Notes: generated by a model not told the origin, from the sequence alone. Counted from the first letter of the stretch, positions 3,710-51,639 are shown. The stretch: 57,232 nucleotides of DNA from Candidatus Omnitrophota bacterium (GCA_016928875.1 JAFGJY010000012.1:1-57232); one strand, 5' to 3'. A program made the numbers and translations.

Positions 3710-3710
3710 T

Positions 3711-5228: not shown

Positions 5229-5242
5229 TTTGCTGATCCTAC

Positions 5243-6205: not shown

Positions 6206-6214
6206 ATATACCTA

Positions 6215-7414: not shown

Positions 7415-7599
7415 TATGACAAAAATACCCTTTATTATATTTATAGTTATGGGTAACTGCTTTTTTCATCATAAGGCATATGAGGTCACTAACAAAATGA
7501 AAAAAACGTGCTATCGTTGAGAGCGATTATATTTGGTATTTTATGCAGGAAACCGGTTAGATGAATAACACCACGCGGCACTGTTTGAACCCCGCCCGT

Positions 7600-8844: not shown

Positions 8845-8864
8845 AACAAATCGTCTACCTGCGT

Positions 8865-13998: not shown

Positions 13999-14031
13999 TT
14001 TTCTGATCCGTGTAATGCGGGACCGCCACGC

Positions 14032-14331
14032 TTACTTGGCCGCTACGTTTTTTCCGTTCTTTTTCTCAAGCTCACTGATGATCTCATTGAACTTGAGGTT
14101 GATGACATGCGATTCAGCAAAATTCTCAGCTTCGTTTATAAGATGCTCGATCTCGACTTTGCTTAATCCAACTTTTAATGCCAGTAACGCGATCATACGC
14201 TTTGTCGCATTATGGCGTTTAACGATATCGCTCACGAGTGTACGAATGTGTTCGTATATCTCTTCATCGACCAAGTGCTTCATATCTTTCAAAAAACGAA
14301 ATACAAGCGCTTCTTCATTAACACGATCCAT
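14032..14331 (-). CDS. Hypothetical 99-aa protein, helical, no family recognised
   Basis: Clean ORF with its own terminator. Sequence MDRVNEEALVFRFLKDMKHLVDEEIYEHI... Confidence 0.5.
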   Translation of the reverse strand: MDRVNEEALVFRFLKDMKHLVDEEIYEHIRTLVSDIVKRHNATKRMIALLALKVGLSKVEIEHLINEAENFAESHVINLKFNEIISELEKKNGKNVAAK

Positions 14332-14356
14332 TCAAGTCTCCTTTCTTGTAAATACG

Positions 14357-14920
14357 TTATCTATTTTTTGCAATCTCATCGAGCGTTACATATTGATCTT
14401 GTCCGAGATGAATGACCGGGCGGCCAACTTCAAGCATCCATTTACCTTCTTTATCAAAAAGCCCTTCCCTTACAAAGACCGAAACAACATTGCCGCAATA
14501 GATCGTATGATCGCCTACCGCAATGGATTGATTCAGGCGGCATTCAATATGGGCAAAACATTCATTGATAAGCGGCGTCTCTATAACGATCGCCGGCATC
14601 ATGGTCAGCCCGGTTTCCAAGAACTTGTCACGCTCATTACCGCTGACCGAACCGCATAGAATGATCTCTTTCATAAGTTCGATACCCGGGATATTGATCG
14701 CAAACTGCCGGGAATTCTCAATAAGAGACTGTGTATATGTCCCCTTGCTAAGCATGATCGCGACACACGTCGGTGAAAAACTGACCGGCGAGACCCAACT
14801 GATGGTCACTATATTCTTCTTTTCTTCAAACTCAGATGTCACCAAGGTGATGGGGCTTGGATTAAGCAAGGTAGTAGCATAGTTCTTATCGACGGTTATC
14901 CTTTTAAGCGTCATTTTCAA
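14357..14920 (-). CDS. Flavin reductase-like (FMN-binding split-barrel) protein
   Basis: LNPSPITLVTS...NIVTISWVSPVSFSPTCVAIMLSK pattern. GGTGAGGAGGG SD upstream. Confidence 0.7.
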   Translation of the reverse strand: MKMTLKRITVDKNYATTLLNPSPITLVTSEFEEKKNIVTISWVSPVSFSPTCVAIMLSKGTYTQSLIENSRQFAINIPGIELMKEIILCGSVSGNERDKFLETGLTMMPAIVIETPLINECFAHIECRLNQSIAVGDHTIYCGNVVSVFVREGLFDKEGKWMLEVGRPVIHLGQDQYVTLDEIAKNR

Positions 14921-28407: not shown

Positions 28408-28488
28408 GAGGGTTATACACAGCTCAAAATGAGGGGCCATCAAGGCTTGCAACCGTCATACATGATCCAATCGAAACCCGCCCTTCAT

Positions 28489-28514
28489 AAAAAAAGACCA
28501 GAAAATCTCTGGCC
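28489..28514 (-). terminator. Rho-independent terminator after the pilin-cluster genes
   Basis: Minus strand reads GGCCAGA-GATTT-TCTGGTC followed by TTTTTTT. Confidence 0.6.
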
Positions 28515-28551
28515 TTGCGATATACTCTGGAATATTTACCAGGGTCATTGA

Positions 28552-29040
28552 CTATTTAATGTATTTTGTGAACGCACCCTCCCAATATATAAGAAATCCA
28601 ATGATACCGACACAAAGCACGAAAAAGACCACTTGCATTATTTTTACGTGCTGCCGAAACCGTACGACCTTCTGCTGGGCCTCTGTTTTTTCCAACGCTG
28701 CGTTGCGCTTTTGCTCAAAATTCTCGCGCAATTCTTCGTTCCTTATCTGTTCTGCTTGCTCACGCGCTTTACGCTCGTCCATAACCTTTTTGTGTTGCTT
28801 ACGCATCTGGATCGTTTCCGTAAGCTCGGCACTGTCGTTCATATCGAATGAAGAGATCGGATCATAAAACACGTCTTCCGATTCCAATCCTAGGCGTTCT
28901 TCATACGCCTGTATCCTCGCCCCTGCAAAAAGATCGTCTTCAGTGTGTTTTGCTTTTTCTTCGGTTAAATAGAACGCTTCACCGCTCCTGAAAATGCCAA
29001 GGATGATACATAAAAAAAAGAATATGCGCCAACACCTCAT
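28552..29040 (-). CDS. Signal-peptide + coiled-coil + C-terminal TM protein (paralog of 30806-31288)
   Basis: MRCWRIFFFLCIILGIFRSGEA, an E/K/Q/R-rich centre, and C-terminal MQVVFFVLCVGIIGF. ATG at 29040 lies 8 nt after the upstream stop; the track ORF starts at 29061. Confidence 0.6.
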   Translation of the reverse strand: MRCWRIFFFLCIILGIFRSGEAFYLTEEKAKHTEDDLFAGARIQAYEERLGLESEDVFYDPISSFDMNDSAELTETIQMRKQHKKVMDERKAREQAEQIRNEELRENFEQKRNAALEKTEAQQKVVRFRQHVKIMQVVFFVLCVGIIGFLIYWEGAFTKYIK

Positions 29041-29048
29041 CTTCTCGC

Positions 29049-30620
29049 TCACTCTCTCCATTCAGTTATACGCCACACCTGATCGCTGGGCAATCCAAGC
29101 TGAATGAACCAATCAGCATTTGTTGTCATAAACCGGCTGTGCAATCGTAGATCATAAAATAAGTTCAGCGAATTGTCATAACATATCGCTTCATCTTTTG
29201 CCAATAACGCGCCAAATACTGTAAGGTTCTTGACTTCTCCGGCAATAGCATGATTCGTAAAAAGAACACCCTCGATGCTCCCTATATCATTGGTCGCGAT
29301 ATCACCAAAGCCTTCGATATCTTCAGGACAATACGCGAATTCAGTGATCGGAACACTGGTCTGGACATCAGACCACCCATAATTATCATCCATAATTCCG
29401 TCGCCGTCGAGGTCCTCATACTCCGCTTGGAATTCACCATCATTTTCATAATCATCGTCGGTACCAGGAATACCATCTTCACCAACATCTTCATCCCCTT
29501 TATTAAAAAGGACGGTATCTGCGGTCCATTCGCCGCCCGTCGTGGATGTATAATCACCTAGGATAATATTTTCCCGCGCCGCGTAACAAATAATATCTTC
29601 ATCCATGTTATTTTCATACCACGTATCCATGGCTTCTTCATTCGGCAGAGCAGTCCCGGGACTGTTCTTATACGTTGTGTTATCCGCAACATAAATGTTA
29701 CGACCTGAGTAGATCGTCCCATGTCCCATGATCTTTCCTTTTACAATAACATCACCACGAATAACAACAGGACCATATACTTCAATAGGATTTTGTACAG
29801 TGCCGATCAGTATGATGTTACCGCATTCGTCCCCGTCGTCGCCGAAAACTCCGTCAACAATAACCGTTCCGCCCACACTTATCGAGGCATTATTGGCAAG
29901 TGCCATTTCTTCATATTTTGTAAGATCGCTAAGATTAGGCATAGGTAATTCAGTGGAAAAAGGATGTTGATACGGGAACTCACCATCTTGTTCGTAACTT
30001 GCCGTACCACGTATGTCACCGTCATCCGTATCGATCTCTCCTGAGGCATAGATCTCGCCGTTAACGGTCGGATTTTCATCGAAATAAAAAGGCCCGTTAG
30101 ACCGAATATCGCCGCGAGCCAGAATGCCGTTGCCATAAAAAGTACCGAGATTATTCATGAAATAGACATAATCAAAGATCGACGGCCCTGCATTTTCTTT
30201 GCTGATCGTTACAAAGATCGTTTTAGTCGCACTACGGACGAGTGCCGATGATTCCACAATAAATGAAGCAGCTTCCGGTTTTATCATGACATCAATTGCA
30301 TTATCCCCTAAGAAATTATCTCCAACTTCGCCGACCGCATCCAATTTGAATCCTTCTATCGCATAATCGGCTGTCGGTAAATTATGTGCTTTATCCAGCT
30401 GATTGACCTCGTATAAAGCCCGTTGGATGCCTGCTTCTGCAAGGTATAAGGCCGCTGTTGAATCCACCACATGCTGAACATTTTTGATCTCATTGACCGA
30501 CATGCTCATACTGATGCCTGCGATCATAGTACTCATAGCCACAAATACGACGACAAGCATGAGCGCCATACCGCGGTTGGATGATAGTAAACGAATATGA
30601 GTTCTTGTGAACAAATACAT
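29049..30620 (-). CDS. PilX-N/GspK-like minor (pseudo)pilin with a large G/D/N-rich, acidic Ca-binding-like C-terminal region (copy 1)
   Basis: SNRGMALMLVVVFVAMSTMIAG...ALYLAEAGIQRAL, and EDLDGDGIMDD (DxDxDG). About 60 percent identical by eye to 31293-32846. Both end in EWRE. Confidence 0.65.
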   Translation of the reverse strand: MYLFTRTHIRLLSSNRGMALMLVVVFVAMSTMIAGISMSMSVNEIKNVQHVVDSTAALYLAEAGIQRALYEVNQLDKAHNLPTADYAIEGFKLDAVGEVGDNFLGDNAIDVMIKPEAASFIVESSALVRSATKTIFVTISKENAGPSIFDYVYFMNNLGTFYGNGILARGDIRSNGPFYFDENPTVNGEIYASGEIDTDDGDIRGTASYEQDGEFPYQHPFSTELPMPNLSDLTKYEEMALANNASISVGGTVIVDGVFGDDGDECGNIILIGTVQNPIEVYGPVVIRGDVIVKGKIMGHGTIYSGRNIYVADNTTYKNSPGTALPNEEAMDTWYENNMDEDIICYAARENIILGDYTSTTGGEWTADTVLFNKGDEDVGEDGIPGTDDDYENDGEFQAEYEDLDGDGIMDDNYGWSDVQTSVPITEFAYCPEDIEGFGDIATNDIGSIEGVLFTNHAIAGEVKNLTVFGALLAKDEAICYDNSLNLFYDLRLHSRFMTTNADWFIQLGLPSDQVWRITEWRE

Positions 30621-30805
30621 GCCGTACCTTTTTGAATGTATGTATTATAGTAATGTGTAGGATTAGTAATTAGCAGTCAATGTACTATAACTATAGCACA
30701 TATTTATGGGTTTTAAAGGGGAACGGAAGAAATACCTAGAGCATAAAATGATTCGGATTGCATATAAGTCTTTTCCTGGCAACAAGTTAAGTTTTATAAG
30801 CAAGA

Positions 30806-31288
30806 TCAGTTAGCAAGCGTCCGATCTCGTATAAACCATACCGTACCCACGCATACGACAAAAAACAGGATCTGCACTATCATAAGCTTCTTGCGTATGC
30901 TCTCTTGAATTTTTTGAGCAGCCGCTTGTTCGCGCACTACTCGTAGCCGCTCTTGAAACTCAGAAGATACATCCTTGGTGAACTCGATCTCGGTCTCTTT
31001 TTGGACCTTCATGTTCGCAACAATCTTCTTCTTCTCTCTTTTCATATCAATGATACTTTGTTCTATTTCATAATTCGAAGAACCCTCTTCCATTAAATCT
31101 AAAGGGTTATTATTAGGAACGAGACCGAGTTGCGATTCATACGAAGTTTTTTTCGAAGAATCAAAAATTGTATCACGCGGGTCTTCTGCCACACCACTTC
31201 CATCAGTGTATGCAGCCAATGCTAGTCCCGCACACACACTAACACATATAATGACCAATAAGCTCGCTATTGCTTTTTTGAACAACAA
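30806..31288 (-). CDS. Signal-peptide + coiled-coil + C-terminal TM protein (paralog of 28552-29040)
   Basis: TTG start 4 nt after the upstream stop, behind a GGAGGGAA SD. LFKKAIASLLVIICVSVCAGLALAA and C-terminal VQILFFVVCVGTVWF. Confidence 0.6.
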   Translation of the reverse strand: MLFKKAIASLLVIICVSVCAGLALAAYTDGSGVAEDPRDTIFDSSKKTSYESQLGLVPNNNPLDLMEEGSSNYEIEQSIIDMKREKKKIVANMKVQKETEIEFTKDVSSEFQERLRVVREQAAAQKIQESIRKKLMIVQILFFVVCVGTVWFIRDRTLAN

Positions 31289-31292
31289 CCTT

Positions 31293-32846
31293 CTATTCCC
31301 TCCACTCGAATATTTCCCAGTCTACAGCTACCGGAAATCCCAAATTAATGAACCAATCAAGGTTATCTTTATGCCATTTGCTATGGATCCTAAGATCATA
31401 GAACAAATTAAACGATCGGCTATAGACCATACCATCGTCCTTCCCGATCAAAGATCCGTACAAAACTAAATTTCCCACACGACCCGTAATCGCATGATTA
31501 GTGTAGAAGATCCCATCTAACTGTTGTAATCCGTTGCGCGCAATATCTCCGAAGTTAGATACGCCGGCAGGACAATTGTCAAAATCACTAATAGGTACAC
31601 TCGTGTACACATCATCCCATGTATAAAAATCATCCATCACTCCGTCGCCGTCAAGGTCCTCATGCTCAGCATCGAATTCACCGTCATTCTCCCCTTCATC
31701 TTCGGTTCCCCATATACCGTCTACTCCTACATCTTCCGTCCCCATATCAAATAGATATGCATCTGCATCCCACGTACCACCGGTCGTAGAAGTATAGTCA
31801 CCGAAAATGATATTCTCTTGTGCTGCATACCCCACAAGGTCCTTATCCTTGTTGACCTCATACCAAGTCTCTTCCGCATTTTCGTTCGGCTGAGAGGCAC
31901 CAGGACTTACTGTATAACTAACTTCATCCGCTATATAAATATTCCTACCTGAATAGATCACACCCTGTCCCGTTATCTTGCCCTTTATCACAACATCTCC
32001 CGTGACCACAACAGGACCATTGATCTCGATCGGATCTTGAACCGTACCTACCAGAACGATATTTCCGGATTCGCTTGCATCATCACCATAAACACCATCA
32101 ATAAGAACATTACCGCCAATGCTTACGGTAGAACCGTTCTCTATGGCAAGTTCTTCATATATAGAAAGATCTTGTAAGTTCGGCATCGGCAATGTACTTG
32201 AACTAGGGTGTTGATATGGAAAATCGCCATTTTCATCTTCCTGTCCTGCCCAACCTCTGATATCACCATCATTTGTTTCAACCTCATTAACAGCATAGAT
32301 CTCACCATTAACCGTTGGGTTGAATTTGAAATCAAATCTTCCGTTTGAGCGCACATCGCCACGTGCCATTATACCGTTACCGTAAAACCAGCCCCAGTTG
32401 TTGATAAAATACACATAATCGAACACCCCAGACGGAAGTCCGGCAACCAAGGTCGCATAGATCGTCTTGGTCGCACTGCGTACCGATGCGCTGGCTTGCG
32501 CGTAATACACAAGCGTGCCGCTTCCGGGTGTTATGGTCACTTCAATATCATTATTACCCAAGAAATTCTCTCCTGCCGTACCCACTGCATCAAGTTTAAA
32601 GTCTTCGATCGTGATCTCCTCGTTCGGCAGGTTTTCTTCGTCGGTCAATTTTTTTAGTTCGCCCAACGCCCGTTGTATCCCTGCTTCCGCTAAATACAAT
32701 GCTGCTGTAGAATCGACCTGATGCTGCGCATTGCGTGATTCGCTCACCGCAATCTGCAATGTGATCCCGCCCAAAATAGTCCCCAAGATAGCAAAGATAA
32801 CTACGATCACGAGTGCGACCCCTTTTTCTGACTGTAATAGTTTCAT
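31293..32846 (-). CDS. PilX-N/GspK-like minor (pseudo)pilin with a large G/D/N-rich, acidic Ca-binding-like C-terminal region (copy 2)
   Basis: MKLLQSEKGVALVIVVIFAILGTILGG...ALYLAEAGIQRAL and EDLDGDGVMDD. ATG at 32846 lies behind GGTGGTGA; the track uses the GTG at 32858. Confidence 0.65.
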   Translation of the reverse strand: MKLLQSEKGVALVIVVIFAILGTILGGITLQIAVSESRNAQHQVDSTAALYLAEAGIQRALGELKKLTDEENLPNEEITIEDFKLDAVGTAGENFLGNNDIEVTITPGSGTLVYYAQASASVRSATKTIYATLVAGLPSGVFDYVYFINNWGWFYGNGIMARGDVRSNGRFDFKFNPTVNGEIYAVNEVETNDGDIRGWAGQEDENGDFPYQHPSSSTLPMPNLQDLSIYEELAIENGSTVSIGGNVLIDGVYGDDASESGNIVLVGTVQDPIEINGPVVVTGDVVIKGKITGQGVIYSGRNIYIADEVSYTVSPGASQPNENAEETWYEVNKDKDLVGYAAQENIIFGDYTSTTGGTWDADAYLFDMGTEDVGVDGIWGTEDEGENDGEFDAEHEDLDGDGVMDDFYTWDDVYTSVPISDFDNCPAGVSNFGDIARNGLQQLDGIFYTNHAITGRVGNLVLYGSLIGKDDGMVYSRSFNLFYDLRIHSKWHKDNLDWFINLGFPVAVDWEIFEWRE

Positions 32847-32881
32847 GGCTATCACCACCCTTTACTTTCTTTATACGATTA

Positions 32882-33397
32882 TTAATTCCTCCAAAACGTA
32901 GTTAAGGAAAAATCACTCCCTTGATATCCGTCATTGTCACTTGTATCCGGGTCCATAACGCGAAAATTTATATTCACCCTCCTGTCTCCTTCCCGCGCAA
33001 ACACCGGGTCATCCCCTAATTCGACGACATTATTAAGTACCATGACTTCATCATTAGCGCTGCTTATATTGTCATCATAGGTTATCGCTTCATCAGCAAT
33101 GGTAAATACGTACTCAGCTATCGGTCCATCGATCGTTGCGATCTGCATCGTTGATGTCGTGCTAGTATTAGAGACCGCGACACCGCTTGAATTGCGGATC
33201 GTACGGCCGACCTCATCGAGGAATGTGCGGCCACGTGCTTGGCAACTGACCTCACGGCTTGCATTAAGCCAATATTCCTGGAAAAGAAAATATGTTTGGC
33301 CGGTTGCTATCACAACGACCGCAAAGATCGCAATGGCCATCATAAGTTCGATCAATGAAAACCCATTTTCATTTTTTATGTTCATATCTTTACTCAC
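32882..33397 (-). CDS. Prepilin-type N-terminal cleavage/methylation-domain protein (PilW/GspJ-like minor pilin)
   Basis: NGFSLIELMMAIAIFAVVVIATGQ. GTG start overlaps the upstream TGA (GTGA); an alternative ATG lies at 33385. Confidence 0.8.
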   Translation of the reverse strand: MSKDMNIKNENGFSLIELMMAIAIFAVVVIATGQTYFLFQEYWLNASREVSCQARGRTFLDEVGRTIRNSSGVAVSNTSTTSTMQIATIDGPIAEYVFTIADEAITYDDNISSANDEVMVLNNVVELGDDPVFAREGDRRVNINFRVMDPDTSDNDGYQGSDFSLTTFWRN

Positions 33398-33828
33398 TCG
33401 ATTATGTTGTTATAGAGAACACAATCCAAATACTCAGAACATTCCGCATTGTTTTCTATCCATGTACACTGGATCATTATTTTTTTGGCGATCGTAACAC
33501 CGGAATCCTCGACATCAATGATCGTCGTCGTAATACTGCAAGGAATATCATCGTCGAATGAATCAAGATCAGCGCCATTGTCCAAAACGATCGAATTATC
33601 AGTGTCCGTACCTTCGCTGGGTAAATTTACGAAGCTTATCTCACGCAACTCTTCCATCTTGGTCTGGCACGCCTTGATCGCGGCAACTTTACACTGTGAT
33701 TTATTGACCAGCATCTTCATCTTCGGAAACGTGATCATAAGTGCCAAGAGCGTGGTCGCGAGGATCCCCAGTGAAAACATGACCTCAAGTAAGGTCAATC
33801 CTTTATGTGACTTAACATAGCGTATCAT
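33394..33828 (-). CDS. Prepilin-type N-terminal domain protein (PilV/GspI-like minor pilin)
   Basis: KGLTLLEVMFSLGILATTLLAL. Strong AGGGGAGG SD before the ATG at 33828. Confidence 0.8.
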   Translation of the reverse strand: MIRYVKSHKGLTLLEVMFSLGILATTLLALMITFPKMKMLVNKSQCKVAAIKACQTKMEELREISFVNLPSEGTDTDNSIVLDNGADLDSFDDDIPCSITTTIIDVEDSGVTIAKKIMIQCTWIENNAECSEYLDCVLYNNIIE

Positions 33829-33857
33829 TTCGCCTCCCCTAGTAACTAGTACTATAA

Positions 33858-33873
33858 TTCAACATGCATGCCA
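33858..33873 (-). promoter_or_regulatory. Sigma54-like -24/-12 element upstream of the pilin operon (imperfect -12)
   Basis: Minus strand reads TGGCATGCATGTTGAA versus the consensus TGGCAC-N5-TTGCW. The GG-N10 spacing is correct but GA replaces GC. Predicted TSS is about 20 nt before the ATG. Confidence 0.3.
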
Positions 33874-34077
33874 TACGATTTTATTTTTAACTTATTATTA
33901 TATAATGAGTTACGGAAAATGACCATAATGGCTTATTACTAATATGTTACAAATTTGACATAAAGTTAATATATTTACTAAACGTGCAGTCTTGTAAACG
34001 GTCTTTTTTGTAACTATTTCCGCCGCTTAATGTTCCTTACAATTTACAACATCTTCTCTAAACATATCGGCAAAACT

Positions 34078-34086
34078 TGTTATAAT
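34078..34086 (+). promoter_or_regulatory. Extended -10 promoter element for prmA
   Basis: TGTTATAAT (TGn + TATAAT) about 70 nt upstream of the prmA ATG. No good -35. Confidence 0.35.
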
Positions 34087-34156
34087 AACCACTGCTAAAT
34101 GAGAATTGAAAAATTTAATTCCCGTATACAATAAAAAATTCCTATTTAAAGACACT

Positions 34157-35086
34157 ATGGCCACTACTGACAATACCTATATCGCCTTTACTGTATTTGT
34201 GCCGGTCACGCATTCGCAGGATGTTGCCGAAGTATTGCGGACCTTAACAAACACCGAACCCGCGATTGTCTCAAAGCCGGGTCTTAAGGTGGATAAGGTG
34301 ATCACCTATCTTCCGCTCGATGCAGATATTGAATCACTTAGGCTATCACTTAAAGACCTTTTTCCTTCTTCATATAGAATGCAAACAAAGACGATCGAAG
34401 AACGTGATTGGCGGGATAAATGGAAAGAACATTTTCATCCGTTCAAGATCACCAAACACATAAAGATCGTACCCAGTTGGCATGTTGCGAAGAAGCGTTC
34501 ACGCTTTATTGAGATAACGCTTGATCCCGGATATGCCTTTGGTACTGGCCTGCATGAAACCACGCAATTCGTTGCGCGCATGATCGAACGTAAGCGTCGC
34601 CGCGCGCACACACTCCTCGATATCGGGTTCGGGTCCGGCATCCTCTCGATTGTTGCCGCAAAGCTGGACTACCGCGATATCTGTGCTATCGATAATGATG
34701 AAAATGCCATAACTGCTGCCATGGAAAATGCCAAAAAGAACTTTGTCCATGACATCATCACCTTCACCAGTGCTGACCTTGGCTCTTTCTCGACAAACAA
34801 GCAATATGATTTTATCGCAGCAAATCTCGATACGACGACCTTGTTCAATTTCAGCTTACTATTGATCAAAAAAATGCATAAGAGAAGTTACTTATGTATT
34901 AGCGGCATTACGCTTGAGAACCGCAAAGCAGTGCACAATCATTATAAAAAACAAGGGTTGCGCTGTATCAAGAAATATATTGGAAAAGAGTGGTGTGGGT
35001 TTTTATACAAAAAAAAGAAGAATGGCAAGATCTCCCGCCTTAATCCTCTCAAGAGACGAAAGAAAAGAAGATCAGTAGTGCACTGA
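34157..35086 (+). CDS. prmA: Ribosomal protein L11 methyltransferase (with a basic C-terminal tail)
   Basis: LDPGYAFGTGLHETTQ and LLDIGFGSGILSI. The only plus-strand gene. ATG at 34157; the track uses the TTG at 34106. The tail KKKKNGKISRLNPLKRRKKRRSVVH overlaps the truA 3' end by 15 nt. Confidence 0.9.
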   Translation: MATTDNTYIAFTVFVPVTHSQDVAEVLRTLTNTEPAIVSKPGLKVDKVITYLPLDADIESLRLSLKDLFPSSYRMQTKTIEERDWRDKWKEHFHPFKITKHIKIVPSWHVAKKRSRFIEITLDPGYAFGTGLHETTQFVARMIERKRRRAHTLLDIGFGSGILSIVAAKLDYRDICAIDNDENAITAAMENAKKNFVHDIITFTSADLGSFSTNKQYDFIAANLDTTTLFNFSLLLIKKMHKRSYLCISGITLENRKAVHNHYKKQGLRCIKKYIGKEWCGFLYKKKKNGKISRLNPLKRRKKRRSVVH

Positions 35087-44052: not shown

Positions 44053-47000
44053 TTAATTCCACGAAACATGCCGACGTCCCTTTTGCGTTTCTTTCGGTTT
44101 GTGCGCCGGGACGAATGGTACTGTGTGAGTAATTTTTATCATGAAATCTTCTAAAACAATATATATATTGGGAACGATAAAAATCGTAAAAAGAGTCGAG
44201 CTTGACAATCCTCCGACCACTGTAATAGCAAGCGGTGACCAGAGATTCGATGATTCACTCCAACCAAGCGCCAAGGGTAAAAATCCAAGCACCGTTGACG
44301 CAGTTGTCATGAGGATCGGACGTAAACGATCCTGCCCGGACGTAATGATCGCACGTAAACGGCGCATTCCTTTATCACGAAGCGTATTCGCATGATCGAC
44401 TAAAATGATCGCATTATTGACCACGATCCCCGCTAGCATGATCATTCCCAACAAGACCGGCTGGCTTAACGGTTTATCCGTGATCTGCAGCGAGATCCAT
44501 ACCCCGATCGAGGAAAGCGGTATCGAAAATAAAATTATGAATGGTTGAAAATATGACTGGAAAAGAGAAGCCAGTATCATAAAGATCAGAAAGATCGTAA
44601 TGCAGATCGCTAAAGAAAGCTGAGTTTTTCCTTTGATCAAATTAGGATATTCTCCGCCGAATTTATAAAAATAATCCTTAGGATATTCGACCTCATCCAA
44701 TAATTTCGTCAATTCTTTGGCCTTTGTCTCCAGTGCTCCTTCAAATATTTTGGCTTTAACAAAAACATAACGGAACTTATTGTACTTATCGACCGATGTT
44801 GGCCCGAAACTCGGCTCGAAACTTGCTATTTGTTCCAAAAAAACGCGTTCACCACGTTTAGAAGTAAGTACGAATTTCTTGAGGTCGTCAAGGGTCTTCC
44901 GGTCCTGTTCCTCCAGCCGTGTTATTGTTTCTACCTCATGTCCTTCGTGATGATATTTGGTCGGGCGCATACCGCGCATCTGCGCATGGACCGATTGCGC
45001 TATTTCATCGACCGTAAGGCCATACAAAGCCGCACGGCCTTTGTTGATCACCAAACTGTATTCCGGCCGTTTTCTCAGATCGGTCATAACAATATTGCCA
45101 ATGCCTGATACCTGCTTGAATTTTTGCGAAACTTCATTGGCTAATTTTTCTAACATTTCATCTTCGATCCCAAAGATATTGACGACAAGTTGCTTAGAAG
45201 CATCGATGCTCACACCGTCATCGATTATCACCGCATAATCGTTGTGAACCTCCTTTGCAAACGCGTCCGCTTTTTCTTTCAGTTCTGCTGATATCTCTTT
45301 ACGTGTACGAGACCGTAACTTTTCATCGATCAGACTGACATACAAACGTGGTTCATCTTTCTTGACCGTCGTTGAGATCGTTTCCACCTCACTATAGTCG
45401 ACAAGTAAATTCTCTATGCCTTTCATGATGGTATCATTGGCATCAAGATTAGCACCCGGCGGCGGGATCACGATAACCGCAAATTCGTTCTCTGACATGC
45501 GGGATGGAATATCAAATGGTTTCTTGACCAATCCGAAAAGCGTAAGAAGGAATGCAACACCAACAACAAGAAAAACATTTATTCTATTCCTGAACGTAAA
45601 GATCAAAAATTTCGTATAAACCCGCTTGATGAATCCTATAGGTATCAAAGCGATCCTGTTCTTTTTTTCTACATCTTTGCGTGGCAAGATCGAACATAAG
45701 GTCGGCACGATGCTTAATGCTACGAACAAGGAAGCACATAACGATGCCGTTACCGTAAAGGCCAAGCCTTGATAAATCACTTTGATCTCTTTATCTATAA
45801 AGATGATCGGGAGGAAGACAACGATCGTCGTGATCGTTGATGCAAAGATAGCGATCCACATCTCTTCACTACCCGCAACAACCGCACGTTTAAAGGACAT
45901 TTTCTTAGTTTGCACCCTTTGAAACACATTCTCGAGCACAACGATTGAGCTGTCGACCAAAATCCCTATGGCGAGGGTCAAGCCGCTCAAGGTCATAATA
46001 TTGATACTGATATTAAGAAAACTCATTGCAATAAAAGTCGCGACCACTGAGATCGGCATCGAAATGCCGATAATAAACGTCGAACGAACATCATTGAGGA
46101 AAGCAAAAATGATCACCATCGCCAATATCGCCCCCATAAGCAATGCCCAAAAAACATCTTTTATGGCAAGGCGTATGAATTCACCGGCATTATTGATGAT
46201 ATTTGTGTAGATACCTTTCTTTTCATATTCCTTTGCAAATTCGTCGATCACCTTTTTAATATGGTCTGTGACCGTGATCGTGTTCGCAAGGCTCTCTTTC
46301 TTGATATACATGGAAACGTTTTGCGTTAAATTAAGCCGTGCATAATCTTGTGACTCCAAAAATGAATCGACAACACGTGCGATCTGTTTGAGGCGAATAA
46401 TGGAGCCGTGAGAAGTAACTGCGACACCAATATTGGCGATATCCTCTACATTCATGAATTCCCCTATTGCGCGAATATGGAATTCCTTCTCTCCTTTCGC
46501 AATCCCGCCGGTCAGTACGTTCAGATTGTTAGCACCAAGTACTTCCATAATACGCTCAAAGGATATCTGGTATGCGTCGATCTTTTCTTTATCGATCTCG
46601 ACTAAGATCTTACGCTCACGACCACCATAAATATCAACATTCGCCACACCCTGGACACGCATGACCTTGGATTTAAGTTCTTCTTCAATAATGATACGCA
46701 CTTGTTCCGGCGTATAAAAATCAGATGTGAACGCGACAATAAATATCGGCGATTCACTTTCGTCATATTTAGCGATAACCGGCTTTTGGATCTCTCGCGG
46801 TAATTTGTTCTTTACCTTGGCGAATTTCTCGCGTACTTCCAAAGCGGCAAAATTCATGTCCGTACCGGTCTCGAAACTCATTGTCACACGGCTTTCCGAT
46901 TCTTTGCTGCTTGAATAGATCGCTTTAACATTACTGACCGTACCACAGGCTTCCTCGATCGGTCGCGTCACGAGGTCTTCCACTTCACGCGGTGGCATAC

Positions 47001-47160
47001 CTCCGCGCACGCTCGTAAGAATACTGATAATTCCACGACCTGAATTTTGATAGAGCTCTACATTGAGCTTGGTCAGTGAAATGATCCCCACCAACATGAT
47101 CGCGCAAAATATCATTATGACCGTAACTGGTTTTTTAACTGAAAATTTCGGTATACCCAT
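44053..47160 (-). CDS. RND efflux permease (AcrB/HAE1-like), second of a tandem pair
   Basis: 1035 aa. FSVKKPVTVIMIFCAIMLVG N-terminus and the 12-TM/two-loop RND pattern. Confidence 0.92.
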   Translation of the reverse strand: MGIPKFSVKKPVTVIMIFCAIMLVGIISLTKLNVELYQNSGRGIISILTSVRGGMPPREVEDLVTRPIEEACGTVSNVKAIYSSSKESESRVTMSFETGTDMNFAALEVREKFAKVKNKLPREIQKPVIAKYDESESPIFIVAFTSDFYTPEQVRIIIEEELKSKVMRVQGVANVDIYGGRERKILVEIDKEKIDAYQISFERIMEVLGANNLNVLTGGIAKGEKEFHIRAIGEFMNVEDIANIGVAVTSHGSIIRLKQIARVVDSFLESQDYARLNLTQNVSMYIKKESLANTITVTDHIKKVIDEFAKEYEKKGIYTNIINNAGEFIRLAIKDVFWALLMGAILAMVIIFAFLNDVRSTFIIGISMPISVVATFIAMSFLNISINIMTLSGLTLAIGILVDSSIVVLENVFQRVQTKKMSFKRAVVAGSEEMWIAIFASTITTIVVFLPIIFIDKEIKVIYQGLAFTVTASLCASLFVALSIVPTLCSILPRKDVEKKNRIALIPIGFIKRVYTKFLIFTFRNRINVFLVVGVAFLLTLFGLVKKPFDIPSRMSENEFAVIVIPPPGANLDANDTIMKGIENLLVDYSEVETISTTVKKDEPRLYVSLIDEKLRSRTRKEISAELKEKADAFAKEVHNDYAVIIDDGVSIDASKQLVVNIFGIEDEMLEKLANEVSQKFKQVSGIGNIVMTDLRKRPEYSLVINKGRAALYGLTVDEIAQSVHAQMRGMRPTKYHHEGHEVETITRLEEQDRKTLDDLKKFVLTSKRGERVFLEQIASFEPSFGPTSVDKYNKFRYVFVKAKIFEGALETKAKELTKLLDEVEYPKDYFYKFGGEYPNLIKGKTQLSLAICITIFLIFMILASLFQSYFQPFIILFSIPLSSIGVWISLQITDKPLSQPVLLGMIMLAGIVVNNAIILVDHANTLRDKGMRRLRAIITSGQDRLRPILMTTASTVLGFLPLALGWSESSNLWSPLAITVVGGLSSSTLFTIFIVPNIYIVLEDFMIKITHTVPFVPAHKPKETQKGRRHVSWN

Positions 47161-47211
47161 CGTTCTTTATTTCTCTCCTAGATATAGAATAGCGGTACGA
47201 TACGTATAGGC

Positions 47212-50200
47212 TTACGCGGATGCTTCCTTCGCTGCAAAACTTTTTAAAAGAAAATTAAAAAAGATATACAGCAAGGGAATGACGAATAGGGTAAGAAATG
47301 TGGAGGTGATCAGCCCTCCCATAACGGCGATCGCCATGGGAGCTCGTAACTCTGCACCGTCTCCAAGACCGAGCGCTAACGGCAGCAAACCAAAGATCGA
47401 GGTAAGTGCGCTCATCATGATCGGCCTAAAACGGATAACACTTGCCTTTTCTGCCGCGGTCACTATCCCTTCTCCCGCTTCCCTGAGTATGTTGATGTAT
47501 TCGATCAACACGATCCCATTATTGACAACAATACCGCCAAGCATGATCACGCCGAGCAGCACCACCGCACTTATAGAAGTGTTGGTTATAAAAAGTGCAG
47601 TAACAACACCAATTATCGAAAGTGGTACGGTGAACATAACGATGAAAGGCTGAAATAACGATTCGAATTGCGATGCCATGATCATGTAGATCAATATAAT
47701 AGAGAGGATCAACGCAAACATGAATTTGCGATTAGATTCTTCGACTTCTGCGCTTTCACCAGCCATCTGCACTCTGAAATCGATCAACTCCTTGCCGATC
47801 TTGTCTACCTGTTGTTTGGCATTATCGATCACGTCCTTCTTGCTATACCCTTTTGCGATGTTTGCAAGCACAAGTACTGTACGTTCCTGATCAACACGTT
47901 TTATCTCACTGGGCCCTAACCCTTTTACGATCTTCGATACCTCACGTAATGGAATTACCGTATTAAGCAATGGCGAACGGATCAGCAAATTACCGACGCT
48001 CATAAAATCCTTTCTGTCTTCGGCTTGCAACTGAACTCTGATCTGTGTTTCCTGGCCAGCCTCCTTGAATTTTGTAGCGATCGCTCCGTCGAGCGCCATT
48101 TTTGCCGTAAGCGATATATCACTCACCGATATCGCGTATAACGCGGCTTTTTCTTTGTTGATCAAAACCTTTGTTTCCGGAAATGATTCACTACGGTCAT
48201 CCTCAACGTCAACGACCCCCTTGATCGTACCGAGATTCTCTTTAACTTGATCAACCAAACGGTCCATCATGATCGGGTCGTATCCCTTGACCTGTACGAC
48301 GATCGGTTTTCCTCCCGTAGCCAAGAATTGAAATTCACTCTCTTGCATTATGAATTGAATTTTCACCTTATCGTCTGCTACGCCCGACATCTTTGCGCGT
48401 AACTCGTCAATAACCTCCTGCGAAGATAGTTTGCGATCTTGTTTCAAATTGACCAAGATCTGCCCTTGATGCGGCCCCGTCAATGCCGCGCCCGCCGCGA
48501 CGGTACCTCTTGCAGCTCCGATACTCACGGCTGTGCTTTCGACATCTGGATGCCCCAAAACTATATTTTCGACTTTATCGACCATATAATGGGTCACATC
48601 CAAGACCGTGCCGGTCGGATAATCAACACGAATTATGAATTGTCCTTGATCTATTCTAGGCAAGAGTTCGACCTCCATAAATTGCACAAGAAACATTGAG
48701 GCGAAAAAAACACCTGCCACGATCAATATGATAGTTGTCCCAAGAACCTTTCTCCGTGCCGGCGGTAGATTACTGAAGTGCGTTGCAACATCCTTACGCT
48801 TATCGACCTCTTCGGTCGAAAGTTTCTTCATTTTGATCCCGACCGCAAGGAGGGGAACAAGGGTGACCGCAACGATAAGCGACATTACCAAAGAAAAGAT
48901 AACGGTCCACGAAAGCTCCTTGAATAATTGTCCGGATATCCCCGGTACGAACAATATAAGCGGCAAGAAAACTGCTATCGATGTAAGTGTTGAAGAAAAT
49001 ATAGCTGCAAAAACTTCATTGGTCCCTACTATCGCAGCAGCCTTAGGCCCAATACCCAGTTGCCGATACCTGAATATATTTTCAATAACAACGATCGCGT
49101 TATCGACCATCATCCCAACGCCGAGCGCTAATCCTCCGAGCGTCATCATGTTAATACTCAACCCCAGGCAAAACATTAAGAAAAATGTGCCCATGATCGA
49201 AAGTGGTATTGCGAGTGTAACTATTACGGCCGGGCGCAAATTACGCAGAAAGACCAATAAAATAAGGAATGCCAAAATGCCGCCTTGGACCGCGCTATCG
49301 CGGATCCCCCGGATCGCATTACGGATAAACGTGGAATGATCATAAATCACCTCAACGTTGACGTTCTTCGGTAATTCTTTGGCCCTCAGTTCAGCGATCT
49401 TCGCCAGCACACTCTCCACTACTTTGATGGTATTGTAGCCAGCCTGTTTTTGGATAGAAATCGATACGTTCTCTTTTCCGTTATAACGAGAAATGCTCGT
49501 TCGCTCCTTGATCGTGTCTTTAATGGTAGCTATGTCTTTAAGCAGAACAAGTCGTTTATCAGTCCTCCCCTTCATCTCTTTGACCCTTTGACTATCTGCC
49601 GATTCACGCGGCCCCTCATCTTGTTTCTCGACATATTCCCGGCGCTGCCCTTCCGCCTGAAAACGCGCGACATCATCAATTGAAACGACCACATAATTAA
49701 GTTCATCGACCGTCCTGAACTCGCCGACCGTCCTGATCAAATACTCATATAACCCTTTCTTGATCGTACCTGCCGGATAATTTACGTTCGCCTGAGAGAT
49801 CGAATCCACAACCGAAAGGATAGATGTATTGGCTGCGGAGAGTCGTGCCTGATCGATCTCGACAATGATCTCACGTTCGAGCCCACCACTGATGGATGCG
49901 GATGCGACACCCTCTACCTTCTCAAGATTATCCTTGAGTGCACGCCGTGAGATCTCACGCAATTCCATTAGATCGTTTCCGCCGGTTACGCTAAGTATCA
50001 AAATCGGACGTTCGAGCGGATTGAATTTCACCACAAGAGGGTCATCTGATTCAACCGGCAAACGTTCTTTTATCAGGTCTATCTTCTCTCGTACCGCCAG
50101 TGCCGCAAAATCGATCTTAATGTCCCATTCGAACGCGATCGTTACAACGCTCATGCCTTCACGTGACCGTGAATAAATGTGCTTTAAGCCCGCTACCGAA

Positions 50201-50415
50201 CCGATAGACTCTTCGATTGGGCGCGTGATCAACGTCTCGATCTCTTCTGGTGCAGCGTTTGCATAGTACGTAATGACACTTATTTGCGGGAATGTTATGG
50301 GTGGAAATAACTCCTGAGGAAGTTTCTGCCATGAAATAGATCCAAGCAACAAGATCCCAAGAAAAAACATTATAATAGTGACCGGACGTCGTACTGAAAA
50401 ATCAGGTAAATTCAT
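47212..50415 (-). CDS. RND efflux permease (AcrB/HAE1-like), first of a tandem pair
   Basis: 1067 aa. FSVRRPVTIIMFFLGILLLG N-terminus. Confidence 0.92.
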   Translation of the reverse strand: MNLPDFSVRRPVTIIMFFLGILLLGSISWQKLPQELFPPITFPQISVITYYANAAPEEIETLITRPIEESIGSVAGLKHIYSRSREGMSVVTIAFEWDIKIDFAALAVREKIDLIKERLPVESDDPLVVKFNPLERPILILSVTGGNDLMELREISRRALKDNLEKVEGVASASISGGLEREIIVEIDQARLSAANTSILSVVDSISQANVNYPAGTIKKGLYEYLIRTVGEFRTVDELNYVVVSIDDVARFQAEGQRREYVEKQDEGPRESADSQRVKEMKGRTDKRLVLLKDIATIKDTIKERTSISRYNGKENVSISIQKQAGYNTIKVVESVLAKIAELRAKELPKNVNVEVIYDHSTFIRNAIRGIRDSAVQGGILAFLILLVFLRNLRPAVIVTLAIPLSIMGTFFLMFCLGLSINMMTLGGLALGVGMMVDNAIVVIENIFRYRQLGIGPKAAAIVGTNEVFAAIFSSTLTSIAVFLPLILFVPGISGQLFKELSWTVIFSLVMSLIVAVTLVPLLAVGIKMKKLSTEEVDKRKDVATHFSNLPPARRKVLGTTIILIVAGVFFASMFLVQFMEVELLPRIDQGQFIIRVDYPTGTVLDVTHYMVDKVENIVLGHPDVESTAVSIGAARGTVAAGAALTGPHQGQILVNLKQDRKLSSQEVIDELRAKMSGVADDKVKIQFIMQESEFQFLATGGKPIVVQVKGYDPIMMDRLVDQVKENLGTIKGVVDVEDDRSESFPETKVLINKEKAALYAISVSDISLTAKMALDGAIATKFKEAGQETQIRVQLQAEDRKDFMSVGNLLIRSPLLNTVIPLREVSKIVKGLGPSEIKRVDQERTVLVLANIAKGYSKKDVIDNAKQQVDKIGKELIDFRVQMAGESAEVEESNRKFMFALILSIILIYMIMASQFESLFQPFIVMFTVPLSIIGVVTALFITNTSISAVVLLGVIMLGGIVVNNGIVLIEYINILREAGEGIVTAAEKASVIRFRPIMMSALTSIFGLLPLALGLGDGAELRAPMAIAVMGGLITSTFLTLFVIPLLYIFFNFLLKSFAAKEASA

Positions 50416-50417
50416 GT

Positions 50418-51596
50418 TTATTCAAATTCCAATGTTTGCTTTTCTATGATTTCGACTTTTGTTTCATCTTTTAAATTCGCGATCGAAGTGATCGCTATCG
50501 TCTGTCCAACGTCAACTCCCGATTCTACATGTGAATAATCGGTCCTTGTATAGGCAACTTTGACCTCAACTTTCTTCACGGTATTATTTTCGGGGTTTAG
50601 CACAAACACATACGATTTATCCTCTGCCTCATTAAGGATCGCTTCCGTAGGAACTACCAATGCATCTTTCTGCTTATAAAGGTCAACATTTATACGCGCG
50701 AACATACCTGGCAACAACCTGCCATCTTGATTATCTATTTTTACGGAAACAGTTGCTGTCCTGGAAACTCCGCCAACAACGGGAGCAATGGATTCAACAA
50801 TACCTTTAAATATCTCATTCGGATACGCATCAACAAAGATATTGGCCTCAAGACCTGTCTTGATCTTACCCATATCCCGTTCAATAACACCAAATTCCGC
50901 TTTCACGAATTCCGTAAGGATGTGGGTCCCGATCAACGTATTGGCCGTGATGGTTTCTCCTTCTTCAACATATAACTCACCGATCATGCCGTCGGAAACC
51001 GCATACATATTCGATTTTTCAAGAACTGATTCATTCGCCTGTAATTCGAGCTTCGCCGCTTCAAGATCGTACGATGCTGATTCAAGTTCAAGGCGCACAC
51101 GATCCATGGTCGTTTTGGGGATTGCGCCCATTTTAAAAAGCTTTTCGTGTTCTTCAACTTTTTGTTGTGCAATATCAACTGCGGTTTGTGTCTTATTCAT
51201 CTGTGCCTCGACCCGTTTCATTCGCAGAATGATATCTTCTTCATCAAGGCTCATGAGCATAGCACCTTTTTCGTATTTCTCACCTTCTTTATAGTTCACC
51301 GCCTTGATCGTACCGGGGATAGGAAACGTTAATTTAAACTCCATGCCGCCTTTAATACTGCCAAGTGCATCCAGAACATCAACAAAATCATGGCGTACCA
51401 CGTCCATGACCTTGATCGGGACTTTCTTATCACCGCCCTCTTCCTGTTGTTCCGCGGCTTCCTGTTTAAGCCGTTCTGATTCAGCTTTTTGCTTTCGCGG
51501 CTCAAAAACGAATTTATTCAAAAGTATGAATACGCCGATCGCCACCAGCATTAGGGTTACTAGTTTCCTCAATTTACCGCTTGTTACTTTTGACAT
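50418..51596 (-). CDS. RND periplasmic adaptor (membrane fusion protein, HlyD family)
   Basis: N-terminal TM segment, a coiled-coil hairpin and barrel regions. 2 nt before the RND gene. Confidence 0.88.
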   Translation of the reverse strand: MSKVTSGKLRKLVTLMLVAIGVFILLNKFVFEPRKQKAESERLKQEAAEQQEEGGDKKVPIKVMDVVRHDFVDVLDALGSIKGGMEFKLTFPIPGTIKAVNYKEGEKYEKGAMLMSLDEEDIILRMKRVEAQMNKTQTAVDIAQQKVEEHEKLFKMGAIPKTTMDRVRLELESASYDLEAAKLELQANESVLEKSNMYAVSDGMIGELYVEEGETITANTLIGTHILTEFVKAEFGVIERDMGKIKTGLEANIFVDAYPNEIFKGIVESIAPVVGGVSRTATVSVKIDNQDGRLLPGMFARINVDLYKQKDALVVPTEAILNEAEDKSYVFVLNPENNTVKKVEVKVAYTRTDYSHVESGVDVGQTIAITSIANLKDETKVEIIEKQTLEFE

Positions 51597-51639
51597 ATGT
51601 GCACCTACCTCTTTGTCTCTGTTTTAATAAAAAAGATCT

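Follow-up and report, generated by a model that had tools for sequence, protein, structure and literature searches.

We describe a minor-pilin operon of a Candidatus Omnitrophota bacterium in which a two-gene unit, encoding a large cap pilin (here called L) and a small partner protein with a predicted membrane anchor (S), is present twice in tandem. The operon lies in a contig of 57,232 nucleotides (GCA_016928875.1, JAFGJY010000012.1:1-57232), and this whole stretch of DNA is referred to as the window. Its gene content, its pilin motifs and the genomic context of its relatives identify it, with high confidence, as the minor-pilin operon of a type IVa pilus (T4aP). The fuller reading, in which it is the priming and tip operon of an Omnitrophota-like diderm with a duplicated cap and a duplicated S, seems to us moderately probable. 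What is new is the L family in Omnitrophota and in phyla of the Planctomycetota-Verrucomicrobiota-Chlamydiota (PVC) group, its putative Ca2+ loop of the PilY1 type, the partner S and the L-S-L-S duplication. Solenoid-bearing cap pilins (ComZ and cyanobacterial PilX) and multiple tip sets per genome are already known as a theme; the finding extends this theme to new phyla and is not a new kind of machine.

Type IV pili (T4P) are the main candidate attachment organelles in Omnitrophota and in many PVC-group bacteria, which are mostly uncultured and have been proposed to be host-dependent or predatory, and to our knowledge the pilus tip complexes of these organisms have never been examined. The L family appears to merge the role of the PilX cap with that of the PilY1 plug, Ca2+ loop included. 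If S is needed for the stability or loading of the cap, it would be a hitherto overlooked part of the pilus priming apparatus of several phyla, and the duplicated L-S cassette would constitute a natural experiment in tip switching. In Omnitrophota, T4aP are near-universal and have been proposed to serve in host attachment (PMC10066038).

Layout of the operon

The operon comprises six co-oriented open reading frames (ORFs) on the minus strand. Its features, and those that flank it, are listed below in window coordinates.

33394-33828, minus strand: minor pilin A, 144 aa, in the GspI/PilV position; class III signal KG/LTLLE
32882-33397, minus strand: minor pilin B, 171 aa, in the GspJ/PilW position; class III signal NG/FSLIE
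31293-32858, minus strand: cap pilin L1, 521 aa; GTG start
30806-31288, minus strand: partner S1, 160 aa; TTG start, 4 nt past the L1 stop
30621-30805, minus strand: spacer between the two rounds, 185 nt, AT-rich
29049-30620, minus strand: cap pilin L2, 523 aa; paralogue of L1 with the same architecture
28552-29061, minus strand: partner S2, 169 aa, or 162 aa from an internal ATG; same architecture as S1
28484-28516, minus strand: terminator-like hairpin and T-run, 10-bp stem with 4 GC pairs, then TTTTTATGAA; end of the operon
33829-34105, minus strand: upstream non-coding region, presumed to hold the operon promoter and shared divergently with prmA
34106-35086, plus strand: prmA, divergent neighbour of the pilin operon

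The start of B covers the stop of A by 4 nt. The longer version of S2 overlaps the L2 stop by 13 nt, and the version from the internal ATG begins 8 nt past that stop. At the end of the operon the hairpin occupies 28516-28494 and the T-run continues to 28484. An earlier note on this DNA, made from the sequence alone, had listed six co-oriented ORFs of these sizes, gaps of 4-8 nt between the large and small genes, the 185-nt spacer and the terminator, and all of these are borne out. The duplication is not an assembly artefact, because a separately assembled contig (L085, Logan SRR13394437) agrees with the window at 100% identity over 9132 nt and has the same gene order.

Minor pilins A and B

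A and B are ordinary minor pilins bearing Glu5. They are the only ORFs of the window with the prepilin motif that combines Gly(-1) and Glu(+5), the class III signal of type IV pilin-like proteins. B passes the cut-offs of Pfam N_methyl (E = 3.7e-8) and of TIGR02532 (2e-6), and A falls just below the former (E = 4.7e-4, 20.1 bits versus a cut-off of 21.2). The remaining NCBIfam matches are sub-threshold, namely ComGE (4.5e-5), Verru_Chthon cassette B (3.7e-4) and gspI (5.7e-4) for A and, confined to the N-terminus, gspJ (7.9e-4) for B. A pilin ORF occupies the position equivalent to A in about 66-68 related loci; directly upstream of L a pilin ORF is found in about 65 of 80 loci, with a second pilin ORF before that. 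Iterative profiles started from A or B gathered all pilins through their common N-terminus, and A-type and B-type proteins were inseparable. Canonical minor-pilin sets are fimU-pilVWXY1E in T4P and gspHIJK in the type II secretion system (T2SS). The window operon differs from both in having no GspH/FimU-type fourth pilin, and the cluster as a whole is not homologous to either characterised set.

L is a cap pilin with a predicted beta-solenoid

L is a cap subunit of the GspK/PilX type, because Gly(-1) is kept and Glu(+5) is absent. In L1 the glycine is Gly13 and the +5 residue is Ile (KG/VALVI); L2 reads RG/MALML, with Leu at +5. Across the family Gly(-1) is present in 46 of 49 members, and the +5 residue is always hydrophobic or Thr, never Glu. 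These leader features, together with the position of the gene at the end of the minor-pilin series and the structural model of L1 described below, agree with the previous description of a minor-pilin cluster with large proteins of the PilX/GspK type. GspK and PilX share with L the retained Gly(-1), the missing Glu(+5) and a gene that comes last, after I- and J-type pilins. GspK differs in that its insertion is alpha-helical and located at another point of the fold, and the PilX of proteobacteria is a small protein (PMC6561018).

An AlphaFold2 model of L1, for which 49 homologues were used, has a predicted local distance difference test score (pLDDT) of 90 and a predicted template-modelling score (pTM) of 0.82. 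In DSSP order, a 64-residue N-terminal helix (10-73) leads into a sheet of four strands (82-139); many short strands then succeed one another, as is typical of a beta-solenoid (about 150-490), and a single closing strand comes last (514-520). The solenoid, triangular and ~350 residues long, apparently interrupts the pilin fold ahead of its final strand; the predicted insertion is thus a beta-solenoid and not the helical one of GspK. When the model was compared with the PDB by Foldseek, the sole significant matches were three chains of ComZ (6qvi; E = 5.6e-10 to 1.8e-8, probability 1.0), followed by weaker matches to ice-binding protein (IBP) solenoids and tapirin C-domains, and a library of viral folds gave only weak matches to DUF3494, an ice-binding fold. 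By both the Foldseek result and the order of DSSP elements, the predicted structure has the architecture of a ComZ-type tip pilin.

ComZ is a tip pilin of the competence pilus of Thermus thermophilus (PDB 6QVI). Its pilin domain is GspK-like and accommodates an IBP-like solenoid between the last two strands, and the protein has been argued on steric grounds to sit at the pilus tip together with PilA2 (PMC6561018). The hydrophobic pilin helix, the GspK-like sheet, the triangular solenoid before the last strand and the location of the gene directly after small minor pilins are all shared with L, and the same pair of similarities, to ice-binding solenoids and to tapirin, has been described both for ComZ (PMC6561018) and for cyanobacterial PilX (bioRxiv 10.64898/2026.02.12.705559). 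ComZ differs in binding DNA through lysines, whereas L is strongly acidic and carries a PilY1-type Ca2+ loop. Moreover, comZ is not known to be followed by an S-like gene (the next gene is pilA4), whereas L is followed by S and is duplicated in the window.

All cyanobacterial PilX proteins have the same solenoid architecture as ComZ, and their solenoid has been proposed to replace the PilY1 tip plug; the subfamilies PilX-Com and PilX-EPS are related to HpsA, and several paralogues and two minor-pilin sets per genome prime distinct filaments (bioRxiv 10.64898/2026.02.12.705559). They resemble L as cap pilins without Glu5 that carry a bulky IBP-like solenoid between the penultimate and last strands. 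They belong to another phylum, no link to L was found at the sequence level, an NCBIfam scan gave no HpsA-type match for L1, and the work on them describes no S-type partner (bioRxiv 10.64898/2026.02.12.705559). Caldicellulosiruptor tapirins and Verru_Chthon cassette protein A (TIGR02600) likewise combine a pilin-like anchor with a beta-helical or repetitive adhesin body and are encoded beside T4P or pilin-like genes; they differ from L in size and solenoid type, and their N-terminal matches (15.6 versus 600 bits for tapirin, 9.6 versus 332 bits for Verru_Chthon_A) are far below the cut-offs.

The EF-hand-like Ca2+ consensus of PilY1 is Dx[DN]xDGxxD (PMC8833165), and it is matched by a putative Ca2+ loop in both L1 (401-DLDGDGVMD, D401-D409) and L2 (403-DLDGDGIMD). 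The motif occurs in 68 of 84 ORFs of the L family, whereas only 11 of the 6794 background ORFs at those loci have it, and its columns are at least 90% conserved in the family. L1 and L2 are also very acidic, with isoelectric points (pI) of about 4.05 and 84-86 Asp and Glu residues against 27-28 Lys and Arg. The motif and the acidity support a PilY1-like role and disfavour a DNA receptor of the ComZ kind, and we infer from them that the solenoid may act as a Ca2+-dependent plug or adhesin in the manner of PilY1. [quoted passage not shown]

Distribution of the module and its probable link to the type IVa pilus

The L family comprises more than 420 database proteins, essentially unannotated, and 453 loci in species-representative genomes; clustering at 50% identity gives 318 clusters at E<=1e-30 and 933 at E<=1e-10. 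Omnitrophota contribute the closest members, and others are from Planctomycetota, Verrucomicrobiota, Elusimicrobiota, Sumerlaeota, Auribacterota and Nitrospirota; a few belong to cultured strains. The names, where given, are "PilX N-terminal domain-containing" (several at NCBI), "Tad domain-containing" or "hypothetical"; some relatives carry a precomputed PF14341 assignment and others PF13400 (Tad), and some distant members from Nitrospirota have Tad-type N-termini. Nearly all top matches cover the profile end to end. The shorter ones start at hit residue 1-7 and look like truncated ORFs, and the solenoid was not seen in another architecture among the profile matches.

The order pilin-pilin-L-S is the standard layout of an operon that is widespread in Omnitrophota, the PVC group and allied phyla, so the pair is not special to this window. 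In relatives, the module stands beside or inside clusters of pilB/C/M/O/Q genes, which argues that it is a component of the T4aP and not a separate apparatus. At loci L003 and L009 the module is followed within 4 kb by pilB (MshEN+T2SSE), pilC, a 167-aa pilin and pilM, and after pilM by two ORFs in the positions of pilN and pilO that have no Pfam match. On a complete Omnitrophota chromosome (CP070837, locus L036, 7195-15075) the order is pilin, PilM, pilin, pilin, L and S, continuing with a gene in the PilN position, PilO, a PilP-like gene and the PilQ secretin. Such an insertion of the minor-pilin module inside the machine operon is an unusual site for minor pilins. The suggestion that the window might encode an undescribed adhesion or contact apparatus was not sustained, given this placement of the module in relatives, the ComZ-like architecture of L and the fact that multiple tip sets are already known.

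Cultured carriers of the module exist (a Limisphaera strain and the planctomycete Poly30), and the question of its function is therefore testable. In Limisphaera sp. 4302-co, a cultured verrucomicrobium, the L homologue appears split into ORFs of 176 and 367 aa (locus L071, 9962-11668), which may reflect a frameshift or a pseudogene and is of importance if experiments are planned with this strain. Two further genes come after the module in the nearest Omnitrophota clade, one for a ~670-aa protein whose N-terminus is weakly PilZ-like and one for a secreted nuclease of the staphylococcal nuclease (SNase) type (L001 11968-14821; L003 12013-14855; L005, L006, L008, L010, L011, L015 and L022). The nuclease gene follows the module at 9 distinct loci (11 if duplicate copies of one contig are counted). 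The window has neither gene, and the second L-S round stands in their place.

The partner S

S is a real, fast-evolving family tied to L, and not a chance ORF, because its profile recovers almost exclusively ORFs downstream of L. The iterative profile, seeded with S1 and S2 and run against 6881 ORFs of the loci, recruited 30 ORFs, 29 of them directly downstream of L; 21 of the 30 were already assigned to S by position, and 8 of the other 9 start within about 50 nt of the L stop. When S is defined by strict architecture (the next ORF after L, 100-220 aa long, with a hydrophobic N-terminus and a C-terminal transmembrane helix), it follows L in 56 of 83 cases, to which the profile adds 8. The combination of a large and a small gene proposed previously is accordingly a true module that is kept in relatives. 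The 13-nt overlap of L stop and S start is common in Omnitrophota loci, and at L001, L006 and L008 the end of L (RWWE and stop) and the start of S (MVGMR) are read from the same ATGGTGGGAATGA overlap, which implies translational coupling of the two genes.

S sequences consist of a Sec-type signal peptide with an AxA-like site, a variable charged middle, a transmembrane helix and a basic tail. Both S1 and S2, which are 23% identical (E = 2e-13), fit this description, and S2 has hydrophobic segments at both termini. In S1 the signal peptide reads ALA/AY, and the AlphaFold2 model (pLDDT 81) has a signal helix and then a low-confidence stretch at 32-70 followed by a helix of 89 residues (71-159, pLDDT >90), the last ~25 of which form the transmembrane anchor. 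If the model is correct, the topology would be N-out/C-in, with a tether in the inner membrane and a helix of ~9 nm reaching into the periplasm. The former label of "coiled-coil membrane protein" is supported to the extent that the S1 model predicts a long helix with a transmembrane segment. When 53 S proteins were scanned with Pfam and NCBIfam, the matches were few and isolated (glycophorin, ATP synthase b, anti-sigma and the like), which are regarded as noise from transmembrane or coiled-coil segments. No Pfam or NCBIfam family covers S, and all 21 database relatives are unnamed or "hypothetical". S was also considered as a protein sorted by a PEP-CTERM/sortase system and as a lipoprotein. 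The first was rejected for want of a conserved signature before the transmembrane helix and of a consistently matching CTERM model, the second for want of a lipobox.

The nearest precedent for S is TfcP of Myxococcus xanthus cluster_1, which stabilises PilY1.1 in the periplasm before its incorporation (PMC8833165). TfcP resembles S in being small, Sec-exported and encoded within a minor-pilin cluster. However, TfcP is a soluble haem protein, whereas S1 and S2 have no CxxCH motif and possess the long helix and the C-terminal transmembrane anchor, which places them outside the TfcP family; the likeness is a functional analogy only. In a verrucomicrobial subfamily of S (alignment A4, P0164-P0180) the mature N-terminus is strongly conserved (AVDPLPPELENAPLEKKAEYWQRTSKES...KVAQERYD), as opposed to the low-complexity middle region of S from Omnitrophota, and this conservation suggests a defined binding domain. 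At loci of the Elusimicrobiota type the gene after L is 463-471 aa long (L017 2254-3645, L020 11528-12919, L026 11441-12856). The S profile matches it in L017 and L020, the L N-terminus gives a weak match in all three, and the gene may be a fused or expanded relative of S.

The tandem duplication

L1 and L2 are 59% identical over their full length, with 39% in the N-terminal part of the pilin helix (alpha1N), 46% in the pilin sheet and 61-71% in most solenoid segments; the S proteins have diverged most. Nucleotide identity at codon positions 1, 2 and 3 is 0.69, 0.78 and 0.38 for L1/L2 and 0.41, 0.54 and 0.25 for S1/S2. This pattern indicates that the duplication is old, that synonymous sites are saturated and that both copies are under purifying selection. 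L1 and L2 each keep all 32 residues that are invariant in the family, and this retention, taken with the codon-position identities, puts the gene pattern far beyond chance.

L1 is 72% identical to its relative P0002 and 70% to P0003, and L2 is 63% and 62% identical to them. Consequently L2 branches outside the group of L1, P0002 and P0003, and the duplication predates the split from those populations. The contigs of P0002 and P0003 are syntenic with the window, with prmA adjoining, and in both a gap of 195-245 nt after S is followed by an ORF cut by the contig end. The layout and the ranking of identities are consistent with conservation of the second round in that lineage. Two full-length L genes in tandem occur in 2 of 80 loci, namely the window and L072 (10004-14022), a locus of a different Omnitrophota lineage where the layout is L-L-S with a single partner. 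The two L072 copies are 72% identical to each other and 33% identical to L1 of the window, and L072 therefore represents an independent duplication. Several genomes have L paralogues at separate loci. The check on relatives proposed in the earlier note, whether the gene pair is conserved and varies in copy number, thus finds the pair conserved, tandem copies rare and paralogues elsewhere in the genome.

In the cyanobacterial case each minor-pilin set has its own PilV partner, whereas in the window the alternative caps would share one A/B pair. In Myxococcus, several alternative tip sets per genome are known. The idea of two alternative tip subunits is plausible; its extension to a separate apparatus is not supported.

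Proposed role and alternative explanations

We propose that A, B and L would nucleate a filament on a PilB/C/M/N/O/P/Q machine encoded elsewhere in the genome. With L1 and L2 lacking Glu(+5), no subunit could be added above them, and L would remain at the tip, where its solenoid would plug the filament and mediate Ca2+-dependent adhesion, i.e., the task of PilY1 in proteobacteria; the target of adhesion in Omnitrophota could plausibly be host or prey cells or surfaces. S would be exported by the Sec pathway and tethered in the inner membrane by its C-terminal helix, with the long helix extending into the periplasm, and would act as an accessory factor specific to the cap, holding, stabilising or delivering L before priming, by analogy with TfcP and PilY1.1. 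We give an even chance to the proposal that S stabilises or delivers its cognate L by binding to it in the inner membrane or in the periplasm. The L-S unit was duplicated long ago, and the resulting two caps would be alternatives used with one common A/B pair.

Several observations weigh against this reading. The homologues of pilB, pilC, pilM, pilN, a major pilin and the secretin that were searched for are absent from the window, as had in part been noted before, so the link to the T4aP rests on the relatives, and pilB or pilC is found within 10 kb in only about 7 of 80 loci. Minor-pilin operons are, on the other hand, usually unlinked to the machinery genes. The GspI/GspJ classification of A and B is based on position, size and sub-threshold HMM (hidden Markov model) matches. 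The hidden Markov models recommended for L score below their cut-offs, with 21.4 bits for L1 and 10.0 for L2 versus a gathering threshold of 25.5 for PilX_N (PF14341), and 11.4 and 11.2 bits versus an equivalog cut-off of 130 for T2SS GspK (NF037980), the latter at the N-terminus only; the relation to PilX_N is likely to be real despite these scores. TM-scores of the L1 model against ComZ are low (0.26-0.30, root-mean-square deviation about 14 A), and the Foldseek match therefore denotes shared architecture and local structure and not rigid superposition. A profile of 49 L members searched against all PDB sequences did not retrieve ComZ at E<=10, and the relation, insofar as the predicted model is right, is one of architecture and local structure and not of demonstrable homology. 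About 19% of the L family is without the strict Ca2+ motif. Furthermore, the solenoid is better conserved than the pilin domain across the family, as would be expected of a structural plug, or of binding to a conserved ligand, more than of a variable adhesin. For S, the role is one that we infer entirely; S has no sequence similarity to TfcP and, unlike TfcP, is membrane-anchored. Finally, the differential use of the two L-S pairs finds no support in the spacer, where no convincing internal promoter or terminator is present. A terminator-like site was looked for at 30621-30805 and none was found, the single promoter-like match (30717-30690) is weak, and alignment and repeat searches of the spacer against the region upstream of A detected only AT-rich chance similarity and no duplicated promoter.

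One alternative concerns S, which might belong permanently, as a non-pilin subunit, to the T4aP priming complex of Omnitrophota and the PVC group. Its helix, of reverse topology (periplasm to membrane, mirroring a pilin alpha1), would pair with alpha1N of the cognate cap in the inner membrane and choose whether L1 or L2 is loaded onto the machine, each L-S pair then being a self-contained and exchangeable tip cassette. This would account for the joint duplication of L and S, and also for alpha1N, the pilin domain and S being the parts most diverged between the rounds; we regard it as unlikely. That same divergence (39-46% identity in the pilin domain and alpha1N, 23% in S) is expected of subfunctionalised L-S pairs and speaks against the simpler view of L2-S2 as a redundant leftover of duplication without a distinct role, with one cap effectively used. 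Redundancy would agree with the rarity of tandem duplication in the family, with the lack of a distinct promoter or terminator between the rounds and with the fairly similar solenoids of L1 and L2, but the duplication is old by its third-position identity and the copies of L and S are still intact. The ranking of codon positions (2 > 1 > 3) is typical of purifying selection, L2 retains the invariant residues and the Ca2+ loop, and the layout with two rounds apparently persists in relatives at 70-72% identity; we consider redundancy decidedly unlikely.

The remaining alternatives assign the operon or its large proteins to another activity. A DNA receptor similar to ComZ is suggested by the fact that ComZ, which binds DNA and pairs with a GspI-like pilin (PMC6561018), is the sole significant structural match, by the SNase-type gene that follows the module at the nine loci of the nearest clade, and by the existence of a competence-specific PilX/PilV set in cyanobacteria (bioRxiv 10.64898/2026.02.12.705559). 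The low pI of L1 and L2, with few Lys and Arg residues, is however unfavourable for DNA binding, the lack of sequence similarity means that the DNA-binding lysines of ComZ cannot be mapped onto L, comEA, comEC and nuclease genes are absent from the window, and the conserved Ca2+ motif suggests PilY1-like behaviour, which together make a DNA receptor very unlikely. Highly improbable, in our assessment, is a T2SS pseudopilus tip in which A, B and L are GspI/J/K-like, L is the head of a periplasmic piston and S a GspL/M-like component. The weak NCBIfam matches to gspI, gspJ and T2SS_GspK, the three pilin-like proteins that recall the GspIJK trimer in the absence of a GspH/FimU-like fourth, and the nearness of the ComZ pilin domain itself to GspK (PMC6561018) point in that direction. 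Yet the Gsp matches are far below the cut-offs and limited to N-termini, relatives have neighbouring machinery genes of the PilM/PilO/secretin and MshEN-PilB type together with a major-pilin-like gene of 160-167 aa, S has a topology opposite to that of GspL/M and no family match, and a rigid solenoid of 350 residues is ill-suited to a short periplasmic pseudopilus. Least credible of all is an enzyme, i.e., a beta-helix polysaccharide lyase or hydrolase on a pilin anchor with S as its inhibitor or immunity partner. Beta-helices are frequent in carbohydrate-active enzymes and in tailspikes, conservation is higher in the solenoid than in the pilin part, and invariant polar residues (T453, N454, H455, K473, D474, E475, D488, R490, S493) lie near the C-terminal end of the solenoid; these residues are equally explicable as Ca2+ ligands or as structural caps, Pfam and NCBIfam scans detect no catalytic domain, and the fold searches returned ComZ, ice-binding/DUF3494 and tapirin structures but no lyase, hydrolase or tailspike at meaningful scores.

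Other features of the window

Upstream of A there is a sigma-70-like match (33925-33897, TGGTCA-17-TATAAT), and shuffled sequence yields promoter-like sites at least as often as the window does. No match came from Rfam or tRNA scans of the window. The surroundings of the operon are housekeeping genes of a diderm, including thrC, hom, lysC, leuA, valS, uvrB, citrate synthase and lptF/G, with prmA, truA, asd, leuBCD, glgA and RND (resistance-nodulation-division) efflux genes as further neighbours. The plus strand is otherwise almost empty; besides prmA, its only sizeable ORF (14015-14659, 214 aa, no Pfam match) partly overlaps a 187-aa ORF on the minus strand and may not be a real gene. A cluster at 44053-53703 on the minus strand encodes tandem AcrB-type RND transporters of 1035 and 1067 aa with an HlyD-type adaptor and an unusually long outer-membrane factor of 687 aa. 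At 822-9872, also on the minus strand, a glycosylation-type cluster holds a GT2 glycosyltransferase, a radical SAM enzyme, an MptE-like/Maf protein of the flagellin or pilin glycosyltransferase type, an NHL propeller, a GT2 protein with tetratricopeptide repeats (TPR), an ATP-grasp ligase and a 335-aa ORF without a Pfam match. Since the usual substrates of Maf-type enzymes are flagellins or pilins, this cluster could serve in glycosylation of the pilus.

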